A stretch of 64,000 bases of DNA from Heterodontus francisci (taxonomy: Eukaryota), in contig NC_090403.1 of NCBI RefSeq assembly GCF_036365525.1, positions 43,029,095-43,093,094 of the forward strand, read 5' to 3'. The position numbers were made by a program, and so were the translations under genes. This document shows, piece after piece, positions 2,441 to 63,628 of this stretch. Position 1 is the stretch's first letter; every line of letters starts with the position of its first letter. The notes under the pieces were generated by a model. It was not told the DNA's origin. It worked only from the letters and a program-made list of their open reading frames with translations, and did no database searches.

Positions 2441-3277
2441 TTGTTCCTGAAACACACTGTCTAGACTCAGAGGGAATATTTATATTGGGCAAAATGCCAG
2501 CAGGAGTTAACTCCATCTCAGCAAGAAGTCAAAACCTAGATTCCTTGAGTGTCTGGGCAATGAGTGTTGGCAACAACTTAGATTTATATTGTTGATTTAA
2601 TGTACTTTTGTGAGATTGAGTTTTGACACTGAGCAAGAATGGGGGTTTGTGGGGGGGGGGGGGCGGGGTGTGGGGGTTATTAGTTATATTTTGAGGACAC
2701 TTCTGAAAGTAGAGAGATGGAGTAAAGGTGAGAAATATGCTAATACCAATTATGCAACCACAATGATGAAGAAAAAAGTGAAGCCTGGTCCCATTTCAAT
2801 GGAACTCCAAACCGCCATGCAATTCAAAAGCTTGTGGCTCATGGAAGTGTCAAGATTTAGTTGGTTGACAGTAAGTAGGTTGGAGTATAGACTAAATGAA
2901 CAAACTATAAAACGTGATGCTATTCTAGATCAATTATAAAAGCAGTGTAATAGCGTTCTGGGCTGCAGCAATCACCCCACAGACAGCAGGCCGCCTGAAC
3001 TACATGGAAGAGGCTGAGAAAGGGGGGAGGGAGGGGGCGGTTGAGGAGGGCAAATTAAAACCCAGGCCCATGTGGATGGAGTTTGAGGTCAAGCAGCCGC
3101 GTGTTTAAAGCCGGTTGGGAGGGGGACGGGAAACAAGGGCATCGGCTGGGGTTTGGGAGGGGGGGGGAGGATGTACCGGGAGAGAGTGGGGGGTCTGAGC
3201 CTGAAGCGGCCTCTCCCTGACTCTGTGGGGGTGTTGAGCCCGGGGCGGGAGCAGCGCCGGTTCCGGGCCGGCCTTAC

Positions 3278-3319
3278 CTTGGTCCTGAGCGCATTGTCCA
3301 GCTTCAGCAGCCCCGACAT
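3278..3319 (-). CDS. PSME3: Proteasome activator subunit 3 (PA28-gamma), first coding exon; remaining exons not found and probably left of the window
   Basis: ATG at 3319 gives MSGLLKLDNALRTK, then a GTAAGG donor at 3277. Resembles human exon 1 MASLLKVDQEVKLK (14 codons, phase 0). Divergent from BECN1 as in mammals. Confidence 0.8.
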
Positions 3320-30847: not shown

Positions 30848-33800
30848 CTTTTTAAAAACAAAAACAAAATTAAGATAATTTTTGAGACAATCTATTGCTA
30901 ATCTTTTCTGTTAGGAATACAGTTAAGATGCTTGAGAAGGACAAAAATAAATTAATTTAATTAACTGACTTCTAGTACGGTATTACATTTATAATATAAT
31001 TTGTATTATTTACTACCTTGAGCCATGGTGTATAGTTCAGTATAAATGCACTTGTTCCAATGACTCCCACAGCTAGAAGCATGCAGTCTTCCTTTACGGA
31101 CAAAAATTTTGCTCTATGAAAAAGTAAAATGTTATTTGACTTTGTATTTGTTTTAAAACAAATGTAAGGGAAAATCTGGACTTCTCACAAATTATAAGTG
31201 CCTCCCATTTTTAACTTGCTGACTGCGAGTGTTAGCTCTCAACCAGAGCGTTGGATGAAGTGCTGTGCATGAACAAGGTGTTTCATTATGGGGGTGAAGG
31301 CAACTGCTAATTTTTTTTTCTCTGTACTTATAGTAGATTGAGCAGAACTTGAGATTTTTTCTTATTTATCTGAAAATTAACTCCTATTTAAGGAAATTAT
31401 ATATAAATAATGCTTTGATGCAGGTATGAACATTGTAAGTTCCATGCAGAAATCGTACACTATAAAAAAAAATCACAAAATAGCCTTGACTTTACCCTAC
31501 TTTTATCTTGTGTGTTTCATATTCCCTTCCCCGGTTTTTAATAGTAAACATTTCCTCCACAGATACATCTTCAATTGCCAACAATGTTTATTACTATGGT
31601 ATTATTAAAATAATCATACTGCCATATACCTTCTGGTGCTGCACCACTGCCTAACAGAAAGGAGGCATCAAAACTGAAAGGCTTTTTTGAAAAAGGATTT
31701 CAGTAGCAGAATGACTTAAGCTGAAGTCAAGAAGACTTGACTTATGAGCTATTGGAACTATTGGACTAAATTAACTGCCTATCTTAGTGTTCAAGCAAGT
31801 GATTATTAAAAAAAAAATTTGTTGCCAAGCTTAATTTGTTGGAGCTAAGTTTACAATTTTTGAAATATAAGCTGTAACCATCTTCAATTCCCTATTTACT
31901 ATTTTGAATTTTAAAAAAACTAAGAATCAAAAATCATTTTTTTTGAAAAAAAGACTTGATTCTAAATGCGACAAACAAAAATACTCACCTTTGGAGTTCA
32001 TTAGGTGTAGAATTTTCAATAGCAATTTTTAATAAGTTTTCATAGATGGTATTTCTCATGAGGTAAACAAATTTCAGCACCTTAAGGGAAATACTGTGTA
32101 GGTGCTTAATAGGAACTGATGGATCATTGTACCCTTAAAAAAAAAAGTATCATAAAATTATTTGTTTTGAACATTGTTTAAATTATCAGATTTTAATAAA
32201 GTGCACAGGAATTAAATTTGTTTTTTTTTTAAAAGTACATTTGGGTGAAACTATTCCTGTTTTAAAAAGAATTACTATGAATTTTGTCAGTTAAGTTGTC
32301 GCTGTTGAAACTGACAAATTTAGTAGTAATAGTACTAACTAATTGAATTTGCCTTTGTTCAATCAAAATATGCACATTTGGTTTTTCAGCGGCTCACTTG
32401 GTAAAGGTGGCAGATAACTAAGCCACACATCGTCATTTTGACTCAGTTAACAGCACTGAAGTATTATTTTCATTAATTCATAAACTGTTAACAGACAAAA
32501 CTGAATTTGCATGCTTATCAGATTCCAGTCTCCTAGGTTTGATATCTGGCTACAATACAATCTCAATTGCTATTAACTAGGGATTACATTTTTTCTCACT
32601 CACCCATGACTTCTAATAGTATTTCAGTGTGAGTGAATGGGGAAGGGACATTGACTTGAAAACTCAGAGTTTCAAGGACAAGGAGTTCTGAATCCAGAAA
32701 ATCTTCTCTTTTATATGAGTGACCAAGAGATTGGAGAAATTTCAGGGCCATACTATTGTTAACAATCTGGAGAAAGAGATAAAGAAAAAATGGGTTGCAT
32801 TCCTTGTTCCATTGAATAATTAAGATGGAATTTGTATTTTACGTAATACCTATAACATTGCACAAGAAAGGTTCTGATGATGATGCTATCTTTACCTGGT
32901 AATGAAATGAGATCTTGCTTGCTATTTGAACACAAGACATGATCCGTAGTACAAAATGATCTTGGATTCTAACCTGTAATTGTCCCCAAGCATACTTTTC
33001 TGTGTTTTTCTCAGAACCTGTGCATGTAGATGAATAGAGTTTTTCAATGTATCGAATCATAAACCTGTGAAATAGAACAAATAACATGTAAGGTACATTG
33101 TAGCTGGTCTCACGATGAAAGTTTTTTTTAGGAAGAACACTGGCAGTTTCTTTAAAAATTATTTTATAAAGGAGCCTGAAATCTGGCTTAATTATATAAA
33201 TAGTTACCTGCTCAGTATTTTCCTCCAAATAGTTATGCAGTTTCCACTAAAAATCTTTTCTGGTACCTTTGGAAAAAAAACTCCAAACAGTCTGTGGTGC
33301 CGAACACAAATGGCACCTTAAATGGAAGAATTTTCTGTTGTGGGTACAAACTGAACTTAATGTAACTCATGTTTTAGCAGTAAGGAAATTAAAAAGTAAT
33401 TTTAAAACTAAAGCCGCAAAATGACCATGCTCACCGCTGACCTCATAGAAAGCTGCCCACAAAGGTCTAGTGATATCTGTGGCATGGATTTCACTTTTCC
33501 CACCATTAATTTGATTCTGGTGCCAACTGTGGGAGCTTTCTGATGTCTGGCAACAATTATGTCATCAAGTGCATTAAGCAGCCAATCACACTGAAGTATT
33601 CTCTCAACCAGCAAACCAGGAAGTAAAATGCAATCCTTCACTTTTTAATAGTTTTAGAACGAAATAAAGACTGGGCCATATACATGGGAGTAAGGCAGAA
33701 GATGAAATATCAAACTTGTATAAAATTAACCGATGGAAATTTCCAATTGTAATGAAATAATTTGACATTCTACAAATATAAAATTAGTTTTTCTAGGGTC

Positions 33801-36800
33801 AGAAAAGTTGTTCAGTAATTATGAGTTTAGTATGCTGTTTAAAAACTCCATTTCACCTCATTCAACAATGTGTAACTTTTTCAAGGGTTTTTACAGCAAG
33901 ACTAATAGTGTAAAAGTGGAAGATCACGTCAATTCAAGTGATTTCAAGACTTCCTTCTGTGGAGACTTCAAAAGCACAACCTGTGAGGGAGTAGGGAATC
34001 AATAACAGCAACTTCTACATCTCCACATTTAAATGCATCCGTGTGGATATCAGAAGTTGCTGTCAGTTTCACAGTTGTTATTATGGTGAATGCTAAAAGT
34101 TTTGCCATCATTGCAACCACAAAATCCAGGCCAATAAACTTTACATTTGCAAAGTGAAATATTCTTTTAAGTAATGATCAATATATTTTGATCAATATAT
34201 TAAAAACTATGCATCTTCTATAAATAACAAATGAAAATGATTCATTAAATGGGAGTAATTTAAAGATAGTGATGGCATCAATGATTTCAAGTTATATCAT
34301 AAAACATGAGTAAAATGCAAGTAATTTATCATAGTGATGAGAACATAACAAAAGGGAAGGATGAGAATAGGCTATTTGAGCCACTGAAAGTTGTTTCTCT
34401 CCAGCTCCTGCAGTTTGGGATCTATAGTAAAATTTCTACTGCACTGAACACATCAATACGATTCCTGGCTTGAGATCACTATTGTATATGGATTTTGTGA
34501 TTTTTTTTTTGTCTTCCATTTCCTGGTATTGGACGTTATGGTAGACATTGCGAGGAAGCTTCATGTAGCTGGTGTATAATATTCACATTGGAAGATTAAC
34601 AATATGTACATTGTAATACAATAATAATGACAATCCACATTTAATTTCAGAAAGAAATAATTTTAATTCTACTGATAGAGTGGAATCTTAATGAGCATTT
34701 GTTTGCTTGTGAATCATCTCCTTTGGCCTCCTTGTCTCGAGAGACAATGGGTAAGCACCTGGAGGTGGTCAGTGGTTTGTGAAGCAGCGCCTGGACTGGC
34801 TATAAAGGCCAATTCTAGAAGGACAGACTCTTCCACAGGTGCTGCAGATCAAATTGGTTGTCGGGGCTGTAACTTTTTTTTATTCATTCAGGGACGTGGG
34901 CGCCACTGGCTAGGCCAGCATTTATTGCCCATCCCAAATTGCCCTTGAGAAGGTGGTGGTGAGCTGCCTTCTTGAACCGCTGCAGTCCATTTGGGGTAGA
35001 TATACCAACAGTGCTGTTAGGGAGTTCCAGGATTTTGACCCAGCGACAGTAAAGGAACGGCGATATAGTTCCAAGTCAGGATGGTGTGTGACTTGGAGGG
35101 GAACTTGCAGGTGGTGGTGTTCCCATGCATTTGTTGCCCTTGTCCTTCTAGTTGGTAGAGGTCGTGGGTTTGGAAGGTGCTGTCTAAGGAGCCTTGGTGC
35201 ATTGCTGCAGTGCATCTTGTAGATGGTACACACTGCTGCCACTGTGCGTCGGTGGTGAAGGGAGTGAATGTTTGTAGATGGGGTGCCAATCAAGCGGGCT
35301 GCTTTGTCCTGGATGGTGTCGAGCTTCTTGAGTGTTGTTGGAGCTGCACCCATCCAGGCAGGTGGAGAGTATTCCATCACACTCCTGACTTTTTTTTTAG
35401 ATTAGAGATACAGCACTGAAACAGGCCCTTCGGCCCACCGAGTCTGTGCCGAACATCAACCACCCATTTATACTAATCCTACACTAATCCCATATTCCTA
35501 CCAAACATCCCCACCAGTCCCTATATTTCCCTACCACCTACCTATACTAGTGACAATTTATAATGGCCAATTTACCTATCAACCTGCAAGTCTTTTGGCT
35601 TGTGGGAGGAAACCGGAGCACCCGGAGAAAACCCACGCAGACACAGGGAGAACTTGCAAACTCCACACAGGCAGTACCCGGAATCGAACCCGGGTCCCTG
35701 GAGCTGTGAGGCTGCGGTGCTAACCACTGCGCCACTGTGCCACCCTTACTTGTGCCTTGTAGATGGTGGATAGGCTTTGGGGAGTCAGGAGGTGAGTTAC
35801 TTGCCTTAGGATTCCTAGCCTCTGCGCTGCTCTTGTAGCCACGGTATTTATATGGCTACTCCAGTTAAGTTTCTGGTCAATGGTAGCCCCTAGGATGTTG
35901 ATAGTGGGGGATTCAGCGATGGTAATGCCGTTGAATGTCAAGGGGAGATGGTTAGATTCTCTCTTGTTGGAGATGGTGATTGCCTGGCACTTGTGTGGCG
36001 CGAATGTTACTTGCCACTTATCAGCCCAAGCCTGGATATTGTCCAGGTCTTGCTGCATTTCTACACGGACTGCTTCAGTATCTCAGGAGTCACGAATGGT
36101 GCTGAACATTGTGCAATCATCAGCGAACATCCCCACTTCTGATCTTATGATTGATGGTAGGTCATTGATGAAGCAGCTGAAGATGGTTGGGCCAGATGAT
36201 TGACCTCCAACAACCACAACCATCTTCCTTTGCGCTAGGTATGACTCCAGCCAGCGGAGGGTTTTACCCCCTGATTCCCATTGACTCCAGTTTTGCTAGG
36301 GCTCCTTGATGCCATATTCAGTCAAATGCTGCCTTGATGTCAAGGGCAGTCACTCCCACCTCACCTCTTCAGTCCATGTTTGAACCAAGGCTGTAATGAG
36401 GTCAGGAGCTGAGTGGCCCTGGCGGAACCCAAACTGAGCCTCACTGAGCAGGTTATTGCTAAGCAAGTGCCGCTTGATGGCACTGTTGATGATGTCCTTT
36501 AGGACTCAGCCAGCTCAGTCAGTAGTGGTGCTACCGAGCCACTCTTGGTGATGGACATTGAAGTCCCCCACCCAGAGTACATTTTGTGCCCTTGCCACCC
36601 TCAGTGCTTCCTCCAAGTGGTGTTCAACATGGAGGGGTACTGAGTCATCAGCTGCGGGAGGGCGGTAGGTGGTAATCAGTAGGAGGTTACCTTGCCCATG
36701 TTTGACCTGATGCCATGAGACTTCATGGGGTCCGGAGTCAATGTTGATTCTCAGGGCAACTCCCTCCCTACTATATACCACTGTGCCACCACCTCTGGTG

Positions 36801-39725
36801 GGTCTGTCCTGCCGGTGGGACAGAACACATCTGGGGATGGTGATGGCAGTGTCTGGAACATTGTCTGTAAGGTATAATTCTGTGAGTATGACTATGTCAG
36901 GCTGTTGCTTGACTAGTCTGTAGGACAGCTCTTCCAACTTTGGCACAAGCCCCCAGATGTTAGTAAGGAGGACTTTGCAGGGTTGACAGGGCTGGGTTTG
37001 CCGTTGTAGTTTCCGGTGCCTGGGTCAAGGCCGGGTGGTCTGTCCGGTTTCATTCCTTTTTATTGACTTCATAGCGGTTAGGAACAACTGAGTGGCTTGC
37101 TAGGCCATTTCAGAGAGCATGTAAGAGTTAACTACATTGCTGTGGGTCTGGAGTCACATGTAGGCCAGACCAGGTAAGGACAGCAGATTTCCTTCCCTAA
37201 AGGACATTAGTGAACCAGATGGGTTTTTACAACAATCGACAATGGTTTCATGGCCATCATTAGACTAGCTTTTAATTCCAGATTTATTAATTAAATTCAA
37301 ATTCTACCTTCTGCTGTGGTGGGATTCGAACTCATGTCCCCAGAGAAATACCCTGGGTCTCTGGGTTACTAGTCCAGTGATAATACCACTACACCACTGC
37401 CTACCCCGTTGGTTTACACAGTCGGCTCTCCCCTTGCGCTTGTCTTTTTTCCTGCCAACTGCGAAGTCTCTTCGACTCGCCACTCTTTAGCCCCGCCTTT
37501 ATGGCTGTCCACCAGCTCTGGCGATCACTGGCAACTGACTCCCACGACTTGTGATCAATGTCACAGGACTTCATGTCACGTGTGAATCACACTGCAGTAA
37601 TCAATGTGAATTATAAAACCAATCTTAAAGGAGCAAAACTAAGTACAATTTCTAAATCAAAACACAGACTACACAAATACACAAAAATGCAATGAATCCA
37701 GAGAATTTTAATCAATGGCAGGAAAATCTATGCTAAAAGATGGAAGCAGGAATATTTCTAAGTAGGACATGTTAGATTTTTGATCTCCGATGGGTTGTGG
37801 ACGTTTTATATTGAAAGCATTGTAAATCGTCCTACATTTTTTTTCTTGAAATACGATCCTATCTGTTTGTAACATTAAAATTTATACAAAGGAATAATCG
37901 ATTTACTGAATATTGTGTGTCCTTCATCCCTGCACCTGACTAGCTCAAATTTATTCATAAAATGCCAAATTTAAAATGAAAACAGATTGGTAGTATCACA
38001 ATCAATGACTAACATTTCTTTTAAAAAGGAGAGAGAATTAGCCTTTGATTGACTTTTAAGAATAGCAGTAGTAAATGGAACACTGTAAATACCTACAGGT
38101 CAAAAACCATGCAGTGGTAATTAAAGAACAACTTATCTACAGATGATTCAAAAGCAAGATTTGATTACCATACTCAATTTCAAGTTGCACTCTCTGCCTA
38201 GTGCAATGCAATTCACTTTGCAGGTCATATTACCTCTATACACTTTTCAAGATAGTTACGCATAATTTTATCTAATAACAAACCTGGATGAATCCATCTG
38301 CCATATCCAGCACGTCTTGAATACTTTGGCTATCTGCAACACCTGATGGTGGTGGTTGTTGGACTTTGTCTCCTTTCTGCTTGCCTTTTTCAGCTACTTT
38401 CAGGAATTTCTATCTCAGCTGCTCTCCCTCTCTGGCTGTTCTGAACTCCTCATTCTTTTCAGCTGCTCTCACTTTCCAGGTTGTCTCAGAGCTTTCTCAT
38501 TTCTCTAGGTTGTTCTCCCATAGCATTGGGTTTCTCAGCACCACTTTGTGGTCCAGGCACTCACTCCAGCTTGAGACCTTGGACACTGATAGGAAGATGT
38601 AGCAATCTCCAGTTTGGCCTCCTGCCCCTCCCATTTCCACATACTTACCATACCACTCTTAACTTTCTGAATGGGTCTTTCACACCAGCTCTTGTCACTT
38701 GCTCTTGCTTTCTGGTCCTCAGCTTTCATCTCCTTGACTCCCGCCTGCTTTGTCTTTTTCTGTATCTCTCTATCAATCTACCCTTAAGTCACTTCTTACA
38801 TTCTAACAATAATCACACAACCAATTTATGTCATTTTTCCCCACACGCTTGGTGCTTTTGTTGAGCCATTGTACTTCCCATCAGCTTTGGCTTTTATTTG
38901 CAGTTCAGAAACTCAAATCGGGTAGGGTGAATTGTTCTGGCTCCATGAACAGATGTTTGGCTTCTTGGGCACAGATTTTATGCACTGCTGCTTCCTTCTA
39001 CATTTAATTTTCTACGGGAATAAATCAGGACCTAAGAATGAAGTGGGCCTGCAGTGTTAACAGACTTTAGACTTTGTGGTCTTAAAAGAACAAGACTTTT
39101 AAACACATCTCTATTTTAGCAGCAGAATAAGCCAGCGCATCGTCTATTGCATGGTATACTGCTGAAGAAAAATAAAATCAACTGGGTCAAATAAACATCA
39201 AGCAAGTAGTGAACTGTGTATTTTGTTTTATAATTCTGGGACTGGCCAGTTGGGCTTAAATGGTATTTTCCCAGTCCCTTTGCATTCCTATACTCCTATT
39301 TAATAAAACTGCCTCTCATTTTCCCAAAATATCCACCAGTATAATTTGATTTACCTTTCCAGTATTTCCACGGCTTGATATCTTGTAACCTGATGAAGCC
39401 CCAGTTGCTCACAAAGGAGGAAAACAAATTCTGTGATGCAGAATAATAAAAAGAAAATGAACAGGGACATTAATTGCAAGTGAGGTTTACACGAAGTTGG
39501 CTTCAAACACGGCAAATACGCCGTACGCACACCTATTAATCTTAATTTTTTGAAACTGCCTGCGTGCTGGGAGAGGTTGATCAGGTTATTTTCATTCTCC
39601 TTGGCCACATCGACCAGAAACTCTTCCAGCATGTCCGGCGAAACGGCGCTGAACGCCAGCTCGGGCGTCTTTTTGCCGCAGCTCCGGCTTTCGCCCGTTT
39701 TTACCACCACCACTTTATTCATCAT
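30731..39725 (-). CDS. CNTD1: Cyclin N-terminal domain-containing protein 1 (meiotic crossover factor), complete CDS complement(join(39533-39725,39355-39430,32896-33064,32604-32766,31989-32133,31017-31113,30731-30847)), 960 nt / 319 aa
   Basis: GT-AG introns with consistent phases. Peptides EFVFLLCEQLGLHQVTRYQAVEILERFM, LRIMSCVQIASKISF, IENSTPNELQ, KFLSVKEDCMLLAVG match CNTD1. Start codon is either ATG at 39725 or 39722. Confidence 0.96.
31017..31113 (-). CDS. CNTD1: CNTD1 exon 6
   Basis: catag|AKFLSVKEDCMLLAVGVIGTSAFILNYTPWLK|gtagt. Confidence 0.95.
31989..32133 (-). CDS. CNTD1: CNTD1 exon 5
   Basis: taag|GYNDPSVPIKHLHSISLKVLKFVYLMRNTIYENLLKIAIENSTPNELQ|gtgagt. Confidence 0.95.
32604..32766 (-). 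CDS. CNTD1: CNTD1 exon 4
   Basis: ccag|IVNNSMALKFLQSLGHSYKREDFLDSELLVLETLSFQVNVPSPFTHTEILLEVM|gtgagt. Confidence 0.95.
32896..33064 (-). CDS. CNTD1: CNTD1 exon 3
   Basis: cacag|FMIRYIEKLY...FVLRIMSCVQIASKISFHYQ|gtaaag. Confidence 0.95.
34873..37407 (-). mobile_element. Non-LTR retrotransposon (CR1/L2-superclade-like) with APE-EN + RT, internal deletions and a tRNA-derived 5' head
   Basis: EN TNIWGLVPKLEEL...PDIVILTE...GDFNVHH (36515-36965), RT IRSEVGMFADD (~36120-36150), LDNIQAWADKWQ (35720-36058), C-terminus ...SFTVAGSKSWNSL, A-tail at 34873-34881, A/B boxes at 37386-37396 and 37321-37333. Confidence 0.88.
35390..35745 (-). mobile_element. HE1/V-SINE-type tRNA SINE inserted in the LINE
   Basis: Head GGGTGGCACAGTGGCGCAGTGGTTAGCAC, V-domain TGTGTGGAGTTTGCAAGTTCTCCC, CR1-like tail GGGCCGAAGGGCCTGTTTCAGTGCTGTATCTCT. 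Confidence 0.88.
39355..39430 (-). CDS. CNTD1: CNTD1 exon 2
   Basis: cacag|EFVFLLCEQLGLHQVTRYQAVEILE(R)|gtaaat. Confidence 0.95.
39533..39725 (-). CDS. CNTD1: CNTD1 exon 1
   Basis: MMNKVVVVKTG...FSAVSPDMLEEFLVDVAKENENNLINLSQHAGSFKKLRLI G|gtgtgc. Confidence 0.9.
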
Positions 39726-40420
39726 CGCACAATCCGTTGGGCCTCCCGAGCTGAGGGTCAGGCTGCGGCTGAGCGCCAAAGGTGCGAGGGCCTGGCCAAA
39801 TTTTACAGGGGCGGCTTTGGGTTGTCACAAATCCTTAACCTATTCCGTTGAGTGCAAAAGTGTGCCACTAAATATGACGCGCAAATGCACATTAAATATT
39901 TCGCAAACGAGTCGCGAAACCCGCACAGCCAAGCGTCTTTCCTTTTGGGAGGGTCTGAATAAAATGGCGGCGCCCCAGCCCGCTCCGCGTGCTCTGGAAC
40001 CCGCCACAACCCACCCGAACCCGCCTGCGCACTGCGCCGGCCCTCGCCGACGGCATTCCGCCTGCGCCCGGCATACCCTACTTCACCTGCGCACCGTGCC
40101 GGCCGCCGGCCCTCACCTACCCCCACTCCGCCTGCGCCTTGTGCCGGTCGCCGGCCCTCGCCGCCACCACTCCGCCTGCGCTCGGTGCCGGCACCCGGCA
40201 TACCCCACTTCACCTGCGCCTTGTGCCGGCCCCCGGCTGCAGTGTTCAGTCCGTTGAAGCGCTTTACATCCAATGAATTTATTTTTGTGCTGAAGTGCCG
40301 TCGCTGTTTGCAATGCGGGAAACGCGACCGCCAATTCTGCGCTCAGCAAGATCCCACGAGCTGCAATGTGTTGGTGGCCGGCTAATCCGCCCTAGCGCGA
40401 TGTTGGTTTTGGGGGTAAAA
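39600..40420. promoter_or_regulatory. CpG island / CNTD1 promoter, possibly bidirectional toward COA3
   Basis: High GC and CpG density. YY1-type AAAATGGCGGC at ~39961, CCGTTG (MYB-type) at 39734, 39845 and 40251, E2F-like CGCGAAA at ~39913. Confidence 0.7.
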
Positions 40421-41132: not shown

Positions 41133-41514
41133 GGGAAGGTGGTGGTGTAGTGGTAATGTCACTGGACTAGTAATTCAGAGGGCCACGCTAATGCTGTGGG
41201 GATATGGGTTTGAATCCCACACGGCAGATGGTGAAATTTGAAATCAGTTAAAATCTGGAATTAGACGGGGGGAAAAAGCTAATGCTGACCATGAAACCAC
41301 TGTCGATTGTTGTAAAAATGCACCTGGTTCACTAATGTCTGCTGTCCTTACCTGGTCTGGCCTATATATAATCCTAGACCCACAGCAATGTGGTTGAGTC
41401 TTAAATGCCTTCTGAAATGACCTAGCAAGCACTCAGTTCAGGGCAAGTACGGATGGACAATAAATGCTGGTCTACATCCGCGACGCCCACATCCCGTGAA
41501 CGAATGACAAAAAA
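41133..41514 (+). mobile_element. tRNA-derived SINE made of the 5' head and 3' tail of the 34873-37407 LINE
   Basis: GGTGGTGTAGTGGTAATGTCACTGGACTAGTAA...GGTTCACTAATGTC...CACTCAGTT matches the LINE head; CAGGGCAA...AATAAATGCTGG...GCCCACATCCC matches the LINE tail. Confidence 0.85.
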
Positions 41515-42569: not shown

Positions 42570-43990
42570 ACATGAGAAGTATGAGCAGGAGTAGGCCATT
42601 CAGCCCCTCGAGCCTGCCCCACCATTCAATAAGATCATGGCTGATCTGTCCCAAGCCTCAATTCTTTCGGGCCTGCTCCGCATAATCCTCAACTCCCGGA
42701 GATTTCAAAAATCTATCTACCTCCTCCTTCAATACAATTAATGACCTGGCCTCCACAACTCTCTGAAGTAGAGAATTCCAGAGATTCACCACCCTCTGAG
42801 AGAAGAAATTCCTTCACATCTCAGTTTTAAATGTGTGACCCCTTATTCTGTAAATATGTCCCCTAGTTCAAGATTCTCCCACCAGTGGAAACATATTCTC
42901 AACATCTACCCTGTCAAGCCCCCTTAGAATCTTATATGTTTCAATAAGATCACCTCTCATTCTTCTAAACTCCAATGAATAGAGGTCTAACCTGTTTAGC
43001 CGTTCTTGATAAGACAACCCCTTCATCCCAGGAATCAGCCTCGTAAACCTTTTCTGAACTGCCTCCAATGCTAGTATATCCTTCCTTAAATACGGGGACC
43101 AAAATTCTACCCAATACTCCAGGTGTGGCCTCACCAACACCTTGTACAGTTGTAATAAGACTTCCCTATTTTTAAACTCTAACCTCCTAGCAATAAAGGC
43201 AAAAATTCCATTTGCCTTCTTGCATGCTAACTTTTTGTGTTTCCTGTACAAGAACACCCAGATCGCTCTGTACTGCAGTATTTTGTAGTCTTTCTCCATC
43301 TAAATAATAATCTGCCTTTATTCTTCCTACCAAAGTGGATTACCTCACACTTGCCCACATTGAACACCATCTGCCAAGTTTTTGCCCACTCACTTAACCT
43401 ATCTATATCCCTTTGCAGATTCTTTGTGTCCTCCACAACATGCCTTCCCACCTATTTTTGTATTGTCAGCAAATTTGGATACTCTACACTCTGTCCCTTC
43501 CTCCAAGTCATTAATATACATAGTAAATAGTTGAGGCCCTAGGACCGATCCTTCTGGCACCCCACTAGTTACGACTTTCCAACCTGAAAAAGACCCATTG
43601 ATCCCGACTCACTGCCTTCTGTGTGTTTGCCAATCGTCAATCCATGCCAACACATTACTCCCAATACCCTGAGCTCTTATTTTGTGTAATAACCTTTTAT
43701 GTGGCACCTTATCGAACGCCTTCTGAAAATCCAAATATACTACATCTACCGGTTGCCCTTTATCCACTCTGTTTGTTATATCCTCAAAGAACTCTAACAA
43801 ATTTGTCAAACATGATTTGCCTTTCATAAAACCATGTTGACTCTGTTTGATAGCATTATGTTTTTCTAAATGTCCTGCTATTTCTTCCTCAATAATGGAC
43901 TCTAGCATTTTCCCAATGACAGATGTTAAGCTAACTGGTCTATAGTTTCCTGCTTTCTGTCTCCCTCCTTTCTTGAATAGGGGTATCACA
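42570..43990 (-). mobile_element. CR1 LINE RT fragment
   Basis: ORFs 43609-44022 (NYRPVSLTSVIGK...YLDFQKAFDKVPH), 43227-43451, 42868-43299, and a CR1 tail at ~42575. Confidence 0.93.
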
Positions 43991-59072: not shown

Positions 59073-60049
59073 AACTGTAAAACTAATCTTGTTGGAGCAC
59101 TGAATCCACAAAACAGCATTATTGAAGCATTCCAGCCCGTTATTTTGCTGGTCAGGCTCTTCCAGCTCACTCCTCCAATTTCCTGAACTGAGCCAACATC
59201 TTGCCTAGTTGCTCTTCCAGCCCCAGCATACAGCTACTGACAGCCCTGACTCTGAAGCCTTATTCTTCCAGCCGAGTGATCCTCCATCTTGCGCCTCACT
59301 GAACAGATCCTGCTAACTCACTTGCCAGATTTTTCACCTAATCAGCTTGCTAGTTGATCAGTAAGTTGATGGGGTGAGAAGACTGGCAAGTTAGTTGGCG
59401 GGATTCATATAGCACCTCCTGTCTCACTGCTGTAACCACTAAACTATGATAATTTCCTATTCCAACCTGATAATCAAACTGATTACCTTGCTATATCACC
59501 TTTTTCCAGATCTAGATTCAAATCATGCATGGGGTTATTTTTGACTGCAAAATATGTTATATATATCTGCCTGTTTAAAAATAACACATTTAAAAAAAAT
59601 AAATGTCATTTCGGTTCCATCAACTATCCACTTACATTATTTGAAGGGTACTATTATGACAGTAATAGTCGATCGATTCCAATAAGATCAATCTGATTTT
59701 AACATCAAGATATGTGAATGTACAAAACATCCCATTCTGTGCAAATTAACTCAGGAGCTTGTCAGATTCATTGTTTTCAAGTATCATTTAAGGTTAATTT
59801 ATTTCTAATATTAGTCTTGGTTTCTTTCGTGGACTACAGATGTTTGCTAATGGCTACAACTAATGAGATCAGTATTTCTACTCACACAAACACCAGCAAA
59901 TAAGAGAACCTGTTACTCAGTACGTTAACAGTGAAGGGAGAAATTGATGATTTTACTTTTGCATACTGAAATAATGTATCTTAGCTTTTAAAATACATCA
60001 TTGTTTGTTTCCAGTTACATGGTTTAAATGCTTTTCCTTTAGATTTTTG

Positions 60050-60305
60050 GGAACACAACCTCCTGCAAGTTCCCCTCCAAGCCACACACCATCCTGACTT
60101 GGAACTATATCGCCATTCCTTCACTGTCGCTGGGTCAAAATCCTGGAACTCCCTTCCTAACAGCACTGTGGGCGTACCTACACCACATGGACTGCAGCGG
60201 TTCAAGAAGGCAGCTCACCACCACCTTCTCAAGGGCAATTAGGGATGGGCAATAAATGCTGGCCTAGCCAGCGATGCCCACATCCCAGGAGTGAATTTCA
60301 AAAAA
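60050..60305 (+). mobile_element. 5'-truncated 3' end of the same LINE family as 34873-37407
   Basis: Near-identical to the reverse complement of 34880-35125 (CTGACTTGGAACTATATCGCC...CTCAAGGGCAATTAGGGATGGGCAATAAATGCTGG). Confidence 0.88.
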
Positions 60306-62945: not shown

Positions 62946-63628
62946 TTTTTTTTTTATTTATTTGCAAGATGTGGGCATTGCTGGCAAGGCCAGTATTTAT
63001 TATTTATTTATACAGCACTGAAACAGGCCCTTCGGCCCACCGAGTCTGTGCCGACCATCAACCACCCATTTATACTATTCCTACACTAATCCCATATTCC
63101 TACCACATCCCCACCTGTCCCTATATTCTCCTACCACCTACCTATACTAGGGGCAATTTATAATAGCCAATTTACCTATCAACCTGCAAGTCTTTGGTGG
63201 TGGGAGGAAACCCACACAGACATAGGGAGAACTTGCAAACTCCACACAGGCAGTACCCAGAATTGAACCCGGGTCGCTGGAGCTGTGAGGCTGCAGTGCT
63301 AACCACTGCGCCGCCCTATCCTTACTTGCCCTCAACTGAATGGCTTCCTTGGCCATTTCAGAAGGCAGTTAAGAATCACCCACATAATCGTAGATCTGGC
63401 GTCACATATAGATCAGACTGGGTACGGCCAGCAGATTTCCTTCCCTAATGAGCTTTTATGAACTAGATGGGATTTTACAACTGATACTAGCTTTTTATTC
63501 CAGATTTATTTATTAACTGAATTGAAATTCCCCAGCTGCTAAACTGGAATTTCAACTTGTGTCTCGATCATTAGTCCAAGGTCTCTGGATTACTAGTCTA
63601 GTGTCATAACTGCTATGCTACTGTTCTC
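62946..63628 (-). mobile_element. Diverged copy of the head+tail SINE, split by an HE1-type SINE (63005-63316)
   Basis: Tail GATGTGGGCATTGCTGGCAAGGCCAG at 62968-62993. Body 63320-63628 has the same junction TTGCCCTCAACTGA and head GGATTACTAGTCTAGTG. Confidence 0.75.

Follow-up and report, generated by a model that had tools for sequence, protein, structure and literature searches.

The 3.3-kb LINE family represented at positions 34874 to 37406 of the window bears a tRNA-derived, SINE-type head at its 5' end, and this head is a real trait of the family. (The window is the whole stretch analysed, 64,000 nucleotides of Heterodontus francisci contig NC_090403.1, positions 43,029,095 to 43,093,094 of the forward strand.) The element in the window, which lies on the minus strand, is a dead, broken copy of an abundant shark-and-ray LINE with a single ORF; as judged by sequence likeness, this LINE is the elasmobranch form of Zenon, a member of the CR1 group. 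In the textbook split, LINEs are coding and transcribed by Pol II, and SINEs are non-coding and transcribed by Pol III. We consider it probable (about 0.7) that the family is an autonomous LINE transcribed by Pol III. If this is true, a shark and ray LINE with a Pol III-type head and a coding sequence purged of terminators would break the LINE/SINE split, and it would provide a natural model for the translation of uncapped Pol III RNA.

In the process that we favour, active source elements would be transcribed by Pol III from the internal A and B boxes to give one 3.3-kb RNA, which would encode a single endonuclease (EN)-RT protein. Pol III would read through an element from which terminator-like runs have been purged, and would stop at the A-tail or past it. 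Translation of this uncapped RNA would proceed without an AUG, from an in-frame start between 37099 and about 37070, for which an anticodon-mimic pseudoknot like that of the dicistrovirus IGR IRESs would be the most likely site. The EN-RT protein would then retrotranspose both the LINE and a partner SINE via their common 3' tail. The head itself would go back to an older SINE, from which the LINE took it in an early elasmobranch, and would since then have been exchanged with the SINE.

The window copy and its family

Table 1. Features of the LINE copy, its flanks and its partner SINE, in window positions
Feature	Positions	Strand	Basis
Decayed single-ORF Zenon (CR1-group) LINE copy with SINE-type 5' end	34874..37406	-	Identity to family majority sequence
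tRNA-derived head; the A box lies 10 nt from the family 5' end (37406)	37312..37406	-	ARAGORN; copy starts
A box	37386..37396	-	Sequence
B box, one G>A change in the window copy	37321..37333	-	Sequence
Non-coding SINE body, common to the partner SINE	37087..37311	-	Family comparison
Predicted hairpin with 7-nt anticodon-like loop (AGC 37101-37099)	37088..37113	-	Folds
In-frame GCU codon complementary to the loop AGC	37073..37075	-	Candidate pseudoknot / putative non-AUG start
ORF 5' part: basic leader and APE endonuclease	36492..37099	-	Pfam PF03372, E 1e-10
RT remnant 3' of a 1,058-nt deletion, MFADD near 36130	35744..36492	-	Pfam, family comparison
Second, different tRNA-headed SINE, later insertion	35392..35743	-	ARAGORN 35669-35741; absent from family
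C-terminal coding part, 3' UTR with AATAAA, A-tail	34874..35391	-	Last ~75 nt common to SINE tail
Host repeat, 5' flank	37414..37584	-	Contiguous with 34801-34873 in empty copies
Host repeat, 3' flank	34801..34873	-	Contiguous with 37414-37584 in empty copies
Partner SINE: nt 1-320 of the LINE fused to its final ~75 nt	41133..41514	+	78% and 81% identity to the two LINE ends

Relative to the majority sequence of the family, the window copy is 96% identical in its first and last blocks and 90% identical (gapped) in the middle, and it is without 1,058 nt at 36492 as well as pieces of 45 and 13 nt. ARAGORN reads the head as a tRNA-Thr-like gene (37312-37400); an Rfam search of the window element gave no tRNA match at E<=1 and nothing relevant. 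The A box (37396-37386) and the B box (37333-37321) lie exactly where the initial annotation had placed them, and the EN frame, RT and A-tail that it named are borne out by Pfam matches (Exo_endo_phos, E 1e-10, for the frame at 36515-37024; RVT_1, E 0.007, for the RT remnant) and by an A-tail that ends at 34874. It had the head followed by a body of about 320 nt; in fact head and body together make up 320 nt. It overlooked the 1,058-nt deletion and the second SINE. This second SINE, which is presumably of the HE1/V-SINE type, entered the LINE with a short duplication and holds the sole T4 run of the block. The flanking segments belong to a host repeat that we take to be an RTE-type 3' end; because they are contiguous in empty copies of that repeat, the LINE unit inserted as one block, as had been proposed for the head and the ORF. 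No clear target-site duplication was found at the window LINE, and one is clear in just 2 of 10 full-length loci examined. Exon-like frames occur on the minus strand at 32596-33246 and 39351-39824 (Pfam Cyclin_N at just E 0.098), which we presume, from resemblance, to belong to the meiotic cyclin-like gene CNTD1. The LINE seems to be sense-oriented within an intron of that CNTD1-like gene, below a GC-rich 5' region near 40000.

In the 6.0-Gb genome, a 401-nt query across the head-ORF junction returned 6,681 candidate loci, and all 40 hits that were scored span the junction at 94-100%. An exact junction 20-mer has 3,325 genomic matches, an EN 21-mer 10,867 and a 3' 20-mer 51,122 (each with a control of 0), and 21 of 29 other fetched loci begin at the tRNA 5' end. 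An unbiased sample was made of the first 100 EN hits in genome order on one chromosome, of which 99 were orientable. Seventy-four of these run into the tRNA head/body, 39 starting within the first 20 nt and 35 inside the head/body; the other 25 start further down, 3 of them keeping head/body with a deletion. The 5' ends of copies pile up 10 nt before the A box. No other shared 5' module continuous with the junction was found in the 99 sampled copies; the remaining flank similarities are scattered, and several of those at 5'-shortened copies are pieces of the same LINE family. (Three sampled loci look like tandem duplicates, and a small 5'-truncation hot spot, with 6 of the 99 copies, lies at the A-rich majority positions 343-350, window ~37064-37057.) The initial annotation had reckoned with a one-off chimera at this locus, or with full-length copies that have a conventional 5' UTR and ORF1. 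The former is ruled out by the 3,325 exact matches, which put head and EN side by side at many loci, by the 40 spanning hits and by the 99-copy sample; the latter were looked for among the 99 copies and none was seen. A hidden subfamily with another 5' end, hinted at by the difference between EN and junction matches, was dropped, because the junction base differs between subfamilies and copies are 5' truncated. An older family with a conventional 5' end was also discarded, the 71%-identical fragment in question (L032) having ordinary family members as its next-best hits. Assembled contigs bridge the junction in 7 of 7 sequencing runs (six organisms and one metatranscriptome; one run of the seven is recorded as RNA), as assemblies from which start, strand, cap and transcription are not readable. 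Among dead copies, the variability of the A and B boxes (0.058 and 0.044) is not clearly less than that of the body (0.041).

When 20 top hits were extended, 14 proved to cover 3.1-3.5 kb from the head or body as far as the tail, and the majority sequence of 14 copies, to which copies are 94-97% identical, is 3,297 nt long with one 975-codon frame starting 307 nt from the 5' end. Both domains are well recognized in one copy, L038 (Pfam RVT_1, E 3e-37; Exo_endo_phos_2, E 2e-12). Homologous ORF pieces occur at 87% and 84% in predicted proteins of Heptranchias and Mobula; in these gene models (P0014, P0099) the LINE pieces are spliced into unrelated proteins, probably as annotation errors. A mutational signature of this genome, and an unusual one, is also present family-wide: on both strands, T in CTA and A in TAG undergo transversion about 10 times more than in other contexts (T>G 3.2%, A>C 4.0%), for example at window 37102 and majority position 2184.

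Zenon has been described in sharks, rays, coelacanth and hagfish, in all cases without ORF1 and with a poly-A tail; from chimaera none was obtained (Stuart et al. 2026, PMC13343379, in the part accessible). The present family has the same traits, namely a single ORF with APE and RT domains, no ORF1 and a poly-A tail. Like it, the five main elasmobranch consensuses in that paper are 3.24-3.31 kb long with a single APE-RT ORF and poly-A, and the first 400 nt of CarCar, HypSab, RhiTyp, ScyCan and SquAca Zenon are, by eye, near-identical to it. By eye, the seven published consensuses from five shark and ray species have the same head, body and junction at their start, with an A-box-like motif in all five species; the head is absent from the start of the two hagfish consensuses and the one coelacanth consensus. 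The 'CR1-Zenon like LINE' of a whale shark preprint (10.1101/443036) is the same family. In a quick RT tree (SH-aLRT only, labelled Zenon RT being absent), a 24-row clade (91) holds the family together with a butterfly protein and environmental sequences, and six other shark LINE pieces fall apart from the family's clade (100). The missing ORF1 that the initial annotation singled out is indeed missing from this 975-codon single-frame family; since Zenon elements are all without ORF1, this is ordinary for the clade, and the unusual part is the head. Other Zenons have an AUG-started ORF and a non-tRNA 5' end, and the family departs from them in both, although this is not a defining trait in PMC13343379.

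The clade is known, and the head-bearing consensus sequence is already public in the supplement of PMC13343379, but the architecture is apparently unremarked, and it is surprising. In the main text of that paper 'tRNA' and 'promoter' each occur 0 times and 'SINE' once, and in the accessible text of the whale shark preprint 'tRNA' occurs 0 times; in both sources, as far as that text extends, the head, the T-run depletion and the missing AUG apparently go unremarked. No description of an autonomous or Pol III-headed LINE was found in the literature searched, which included few subscription papers, and a prior remark in Repbase or Dfam is possible.

T-run depletion and the promoter

The shortest Pol III terminators are TTTT and TVTTT, of which the latter is weak (PMC8466645, accessible part). 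The family ORF has 0 TTTT and 0 TVTTT, the whole 3.3-kb majority sequence has 0 T4 runs compared with 15 A4, 13 C4 and 8 G4, and the window copy has no T4 in 2,181 nt of its own sequence. Against synonymous codon shuffles, the ORF has 4 T3 runs where 12.9 are expected (0 of 2,000 shuffles were as low) and one 4-of-5-T word where 8.7 are expected (p 0.003). At the consensus level the absence of T4 alone is not significant in codon shuffles (p 0.07-0.085), and that of TVTTT has p 0.046. The TT deficit is taken up by a first-order Markov null, under which p is 0.17 for T4 and 0.15 for T3. A-runs are not depleted in the family.

Across 99 ORF pieces of the family, T4 has an observed/expected ratio of 0.14 and T3 one of 0.46 (the copies are not independent, and one lineage counts as one evolutionary observation, not 99). 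The corresponding ratios are 0.84 and 0.97 in 23 pieces of other LINEs of the genome (a set that counts one locus twice and probably includes two old pieces of the family itself), and for 90 pieces of invertebrate-type metagenome relatives they are 1.04 and 1.00. (CR1-type LINE controls with normal T-run content are found at 42868-43299 of the window, minus strand, at 4451-7048 of L040, reverse strand, and at L133.) Among 77 relatives of at least 400 aa, the lowest T3 ratio is 0.69, and each has at least 2 T4 runs. Phe makes up 1.85% of the family ORF, its share in 15 homologues being 2.8-6.8%. In seven close metagenome relatives a Met precedes the EN and T4 runs number 6-28; a search of the 261-700 nt upstream revealed no A/B box in any of the seven. 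tRNA heads were sought in the invertebrate-type relatives and discarded there, ARAGORN giving 0 in the 60 metagenome loci scanned (of 80), many of whose contigs are short upstream. Since the relatives and the other LINEs are without a T-run deficit, the depletion is specific to the lineage with the head, and it speaks independently for Pol III. In one subfamily, a weak terminator-like word lies between the A and B boxes.

Of the LINE ends that could be scored, 16 of 55 have a short T-run (2-6) directly ahead of the A-tail, and so do 8 of 17 SINE ends; the LINE and SINE copies concerned include L031, L037, L159, L268, L272 and L284. These runs are remnants of terminators, like those of T+ SINEs, or else the product of slippage at a later time. 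The LINE ends are like those of the T+ SINEs B2, Dip and Ves, which have AATAAA near the 3' end and variable T-runs before the A-tail (PMC8466645, accessible part); those SINEs, however, are short, non-coding and reported in mammals only, and the LINE T-runs may be slippage.

The AATAAA signals and the strong-context AUG of the LINE are compatible with Pol II too, and for Zenon and other LINEs a Pol II promoter in the 5' UTR is assumed (PMC6740152 and PMC5786205, in the parts accessible). The SINE-derived 5' end might then be a Pol II promoter and 5' UTR, or the RNA might arise by read-through from host genes, with T-poverty reflecting an avoidance of splicing or 3' processing, or a quirk of composition. 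The A-tail fits such a reading, as does the apparent sense orientation of the window copy within a gene intron, and much of the T-run deficit is absorbed by the Markov null. We nevertheless regard it as rather unlikely, because the deficit is found neither in the genome's other LINEs nor in relatives of the same clade, because read-through would not give 5' ends piled up 10 nt before the A box, and because sharks and rays have retained both boxes despite changes in the stretch that separates them (by eye, in the consensuses of PMC13343379). Far more improbable is a reading in which the head-ORF unit would be non-autonomous, a chimera that a conventional Zenon master with a different 5' end copies in trans. 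In favour of it, none of the copies seen is fully intact (the three longest frames in single copies have 926, 756 and 661 codons), and the accessible table in PMC13343379 gives few or no intact ORF2 for stingray and white-shark families. Yet the majority sequence keeps its 975-codon frame open, third codon positions are the most variable in all four ORF windows, an alternative 5' module was seen in 0 of the 99 copies, and 7 of 7 elasmobranch Zenon consensuses in that paper bear the head.

The start of translation

The LINE frame reads AUG-GCC-UAG and is then open, with no further in-frame AUG before the endonuclease. The AUG (37108) and the in-frame UAG (37102-37100) thus form a two-codon uORF inside the predicted hairpin of Table 1, and the GCU codon lies 12 nt downstream of that hairpin. 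The initial annotation stated that no in-frame ATG opens the EN frame in the window copy. An in-frame ATG is in fact present there at 37072-37070, as a CpG decay of the family's ACG, and its frame is closed by a TGA (37027-37025) that is not the family state. The ACG was rejected as a conserved start, since it is ACA or AAA in the published consensuses of 4 of 5 species (PMC13343379, accessible part).

Given Pol III, a start by tRNA mimicry at the GCU is a tentative candidate, modelled on pseudoknot I of the dicistrovirus IGR IRES. There, an anticodon-like loop, a variable linker and an in-frame codon-like triplet lead to a non-AUG start, a layout that is matched here, and three base pairs can suffice (PMC3517527, accessible part). 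It is the predicted last hairpin alone that is alike, which makes the resemblance a lead as to how the element might work and not a sign of membership. The leader folds better than shuffles (z -2.6), and in four runs from other organisms no major variant occurs at the GCU bases, while three linker bases vary. One stem base is lost in 13 of 19 alignable young SINE copies, as against 1 of 72 LINE copies. No compensatory change in the loop-GCU pairing was found among family copies or runs of other organisms, GCUA is not better conserved among genome copies (0.098), and the odds of a chance in-frame match to the loop are about 5%. Past the GCU, the consensuses from Squalus seem by eye to have left the frame (PMC13343379, accessible part). 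Most of the indels that follow directly on 37073 and precede the second AUG are -3 (14 of 23), those in two non-coding controls being mostly +/-1; this places the start above about 37070, with the reservation that the -3 excess may be one inherited event.

Pol III could also be right with a start at AUG 37108 followed by read-through of the UAG, with re-initiation, or with the out-of-frame AUG 37053 and a frameshift, which we hold to be possible if somewhat doubtful. AUG 37108 shares the frame of the ORF and lies in a strong context, conservation of the second AUG is good, and the T of the UAG is gone from 24 of 109 copies. These losses, however, fit the strand-symmetric CTA/TAG hot spot seen throughout the ORF and lie on many haplotypes, which argues that the source elements had the UAG; master elements with an open AUG frame were ruled out as a product of this context hypermutation. 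The -3 indels between the GCU and the second AUG also speak against an AUG start, and another in-frame stop lies between AUG 37108 and the GCU in the Squalus consensuses, as does a 1-nt shift in that of the whale shark (both by eye, PMC13343379, accessible part).

The full combination of Pol III transcription with cap-, AUG- and initiator-tRNA-free translation, via a tRNA-mimic IRES that the SINE body would form, is unlikely as a whole. If such an IRES were real, the SINE body would be a ribosome-binding RNA that parks SINE RNA where it can catch nascent LINE protein, and this would explain the persistence of such domains in SINEs.

The partner SINE and related elements

The initial annotation had paired the LINE with the SINE at 41133-41514, and the pairing is upheld at both LINE ends: the SINE matches LINE nt 1-321 and 3225-3297, its tail beginning inside the last ORF codons. 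The junction of the two parts has 6,968 genome-wide matches with up to 1 mismatch. A SINE majority sequence, built from 20 copies selected by that junction and the window SINE, is 96.7% identical to the LINE ends, young copies being at 93-95% and older ones at ~83%. From its resemblance, the partner is likely to be SacSINE1, presumably with a Deu domain, and the LINE body at 37087-37311 presumably is of the same SacSINE1/Deu type. Head variants are common to young SINEs and the LINE of the H. francisci genome, and older SINEs resemble, by eye, the Squalus LINE head (PMC13343379, accessible part); the sequences suggest repeated exchange or re-derivation between SINE and LINE. SacSINE1-type SINEs occur in chimaera and coelacanth (Luchetti et al. 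2017, PMC5499810, accessible part), where Zenon was not recovered (chimaera) or is, by eye, headless (coelacanth), so the likelier direction of capture would be that the LINE took the SINE head.

Several known systems have part of this architecture. The Deu-SINEs of the SacSINE1/LmeSINE1 type, which are abundant in sharks and skates, have a tRNA head, a body and a LINE-like tail, as does the partner SINE; they are non-autonomous and have been assigned to L2-2_CM or 'CR1-4_DR-like' partners by the tail alone, whereas here a coding LINE bears the whole head and body (PMC5499810 and PMC3747384, accessible parts). Bipartite or internally deleted LINE derivatives, such as the SIDEs (Persaeus from Zenon, PMC6740152; Kojima 2018, PMC5786205; accessible parts), join Zenon 5' and 3' ends, again like the partner SINE. 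However, Persaeus is without a tRNA head or Pol III promoter, and in the model of Kojima the head is added only after the deletion; here the full-length LINE has the head. The A/B-box tRNA-like head is that of a tRNA-derived SINE (SINE2), but the 3.3-kb length and the EN-RT frame do not match the short, non-coding form of such SINEs.

Through this family, the role of conserved SINE bodies and the exchange of modules between SINE and LINE are directly testable, and a compact 3.3-kb retroelement with a single ORF lends itself to easy cell assays. Elsewhere in the window, a LINE 3' fragment lies at 60048-60305 (plus strand), and an older, interrupted copy of the partner SINE lies on the minus strand at 63333-63603 and 62948-63001.
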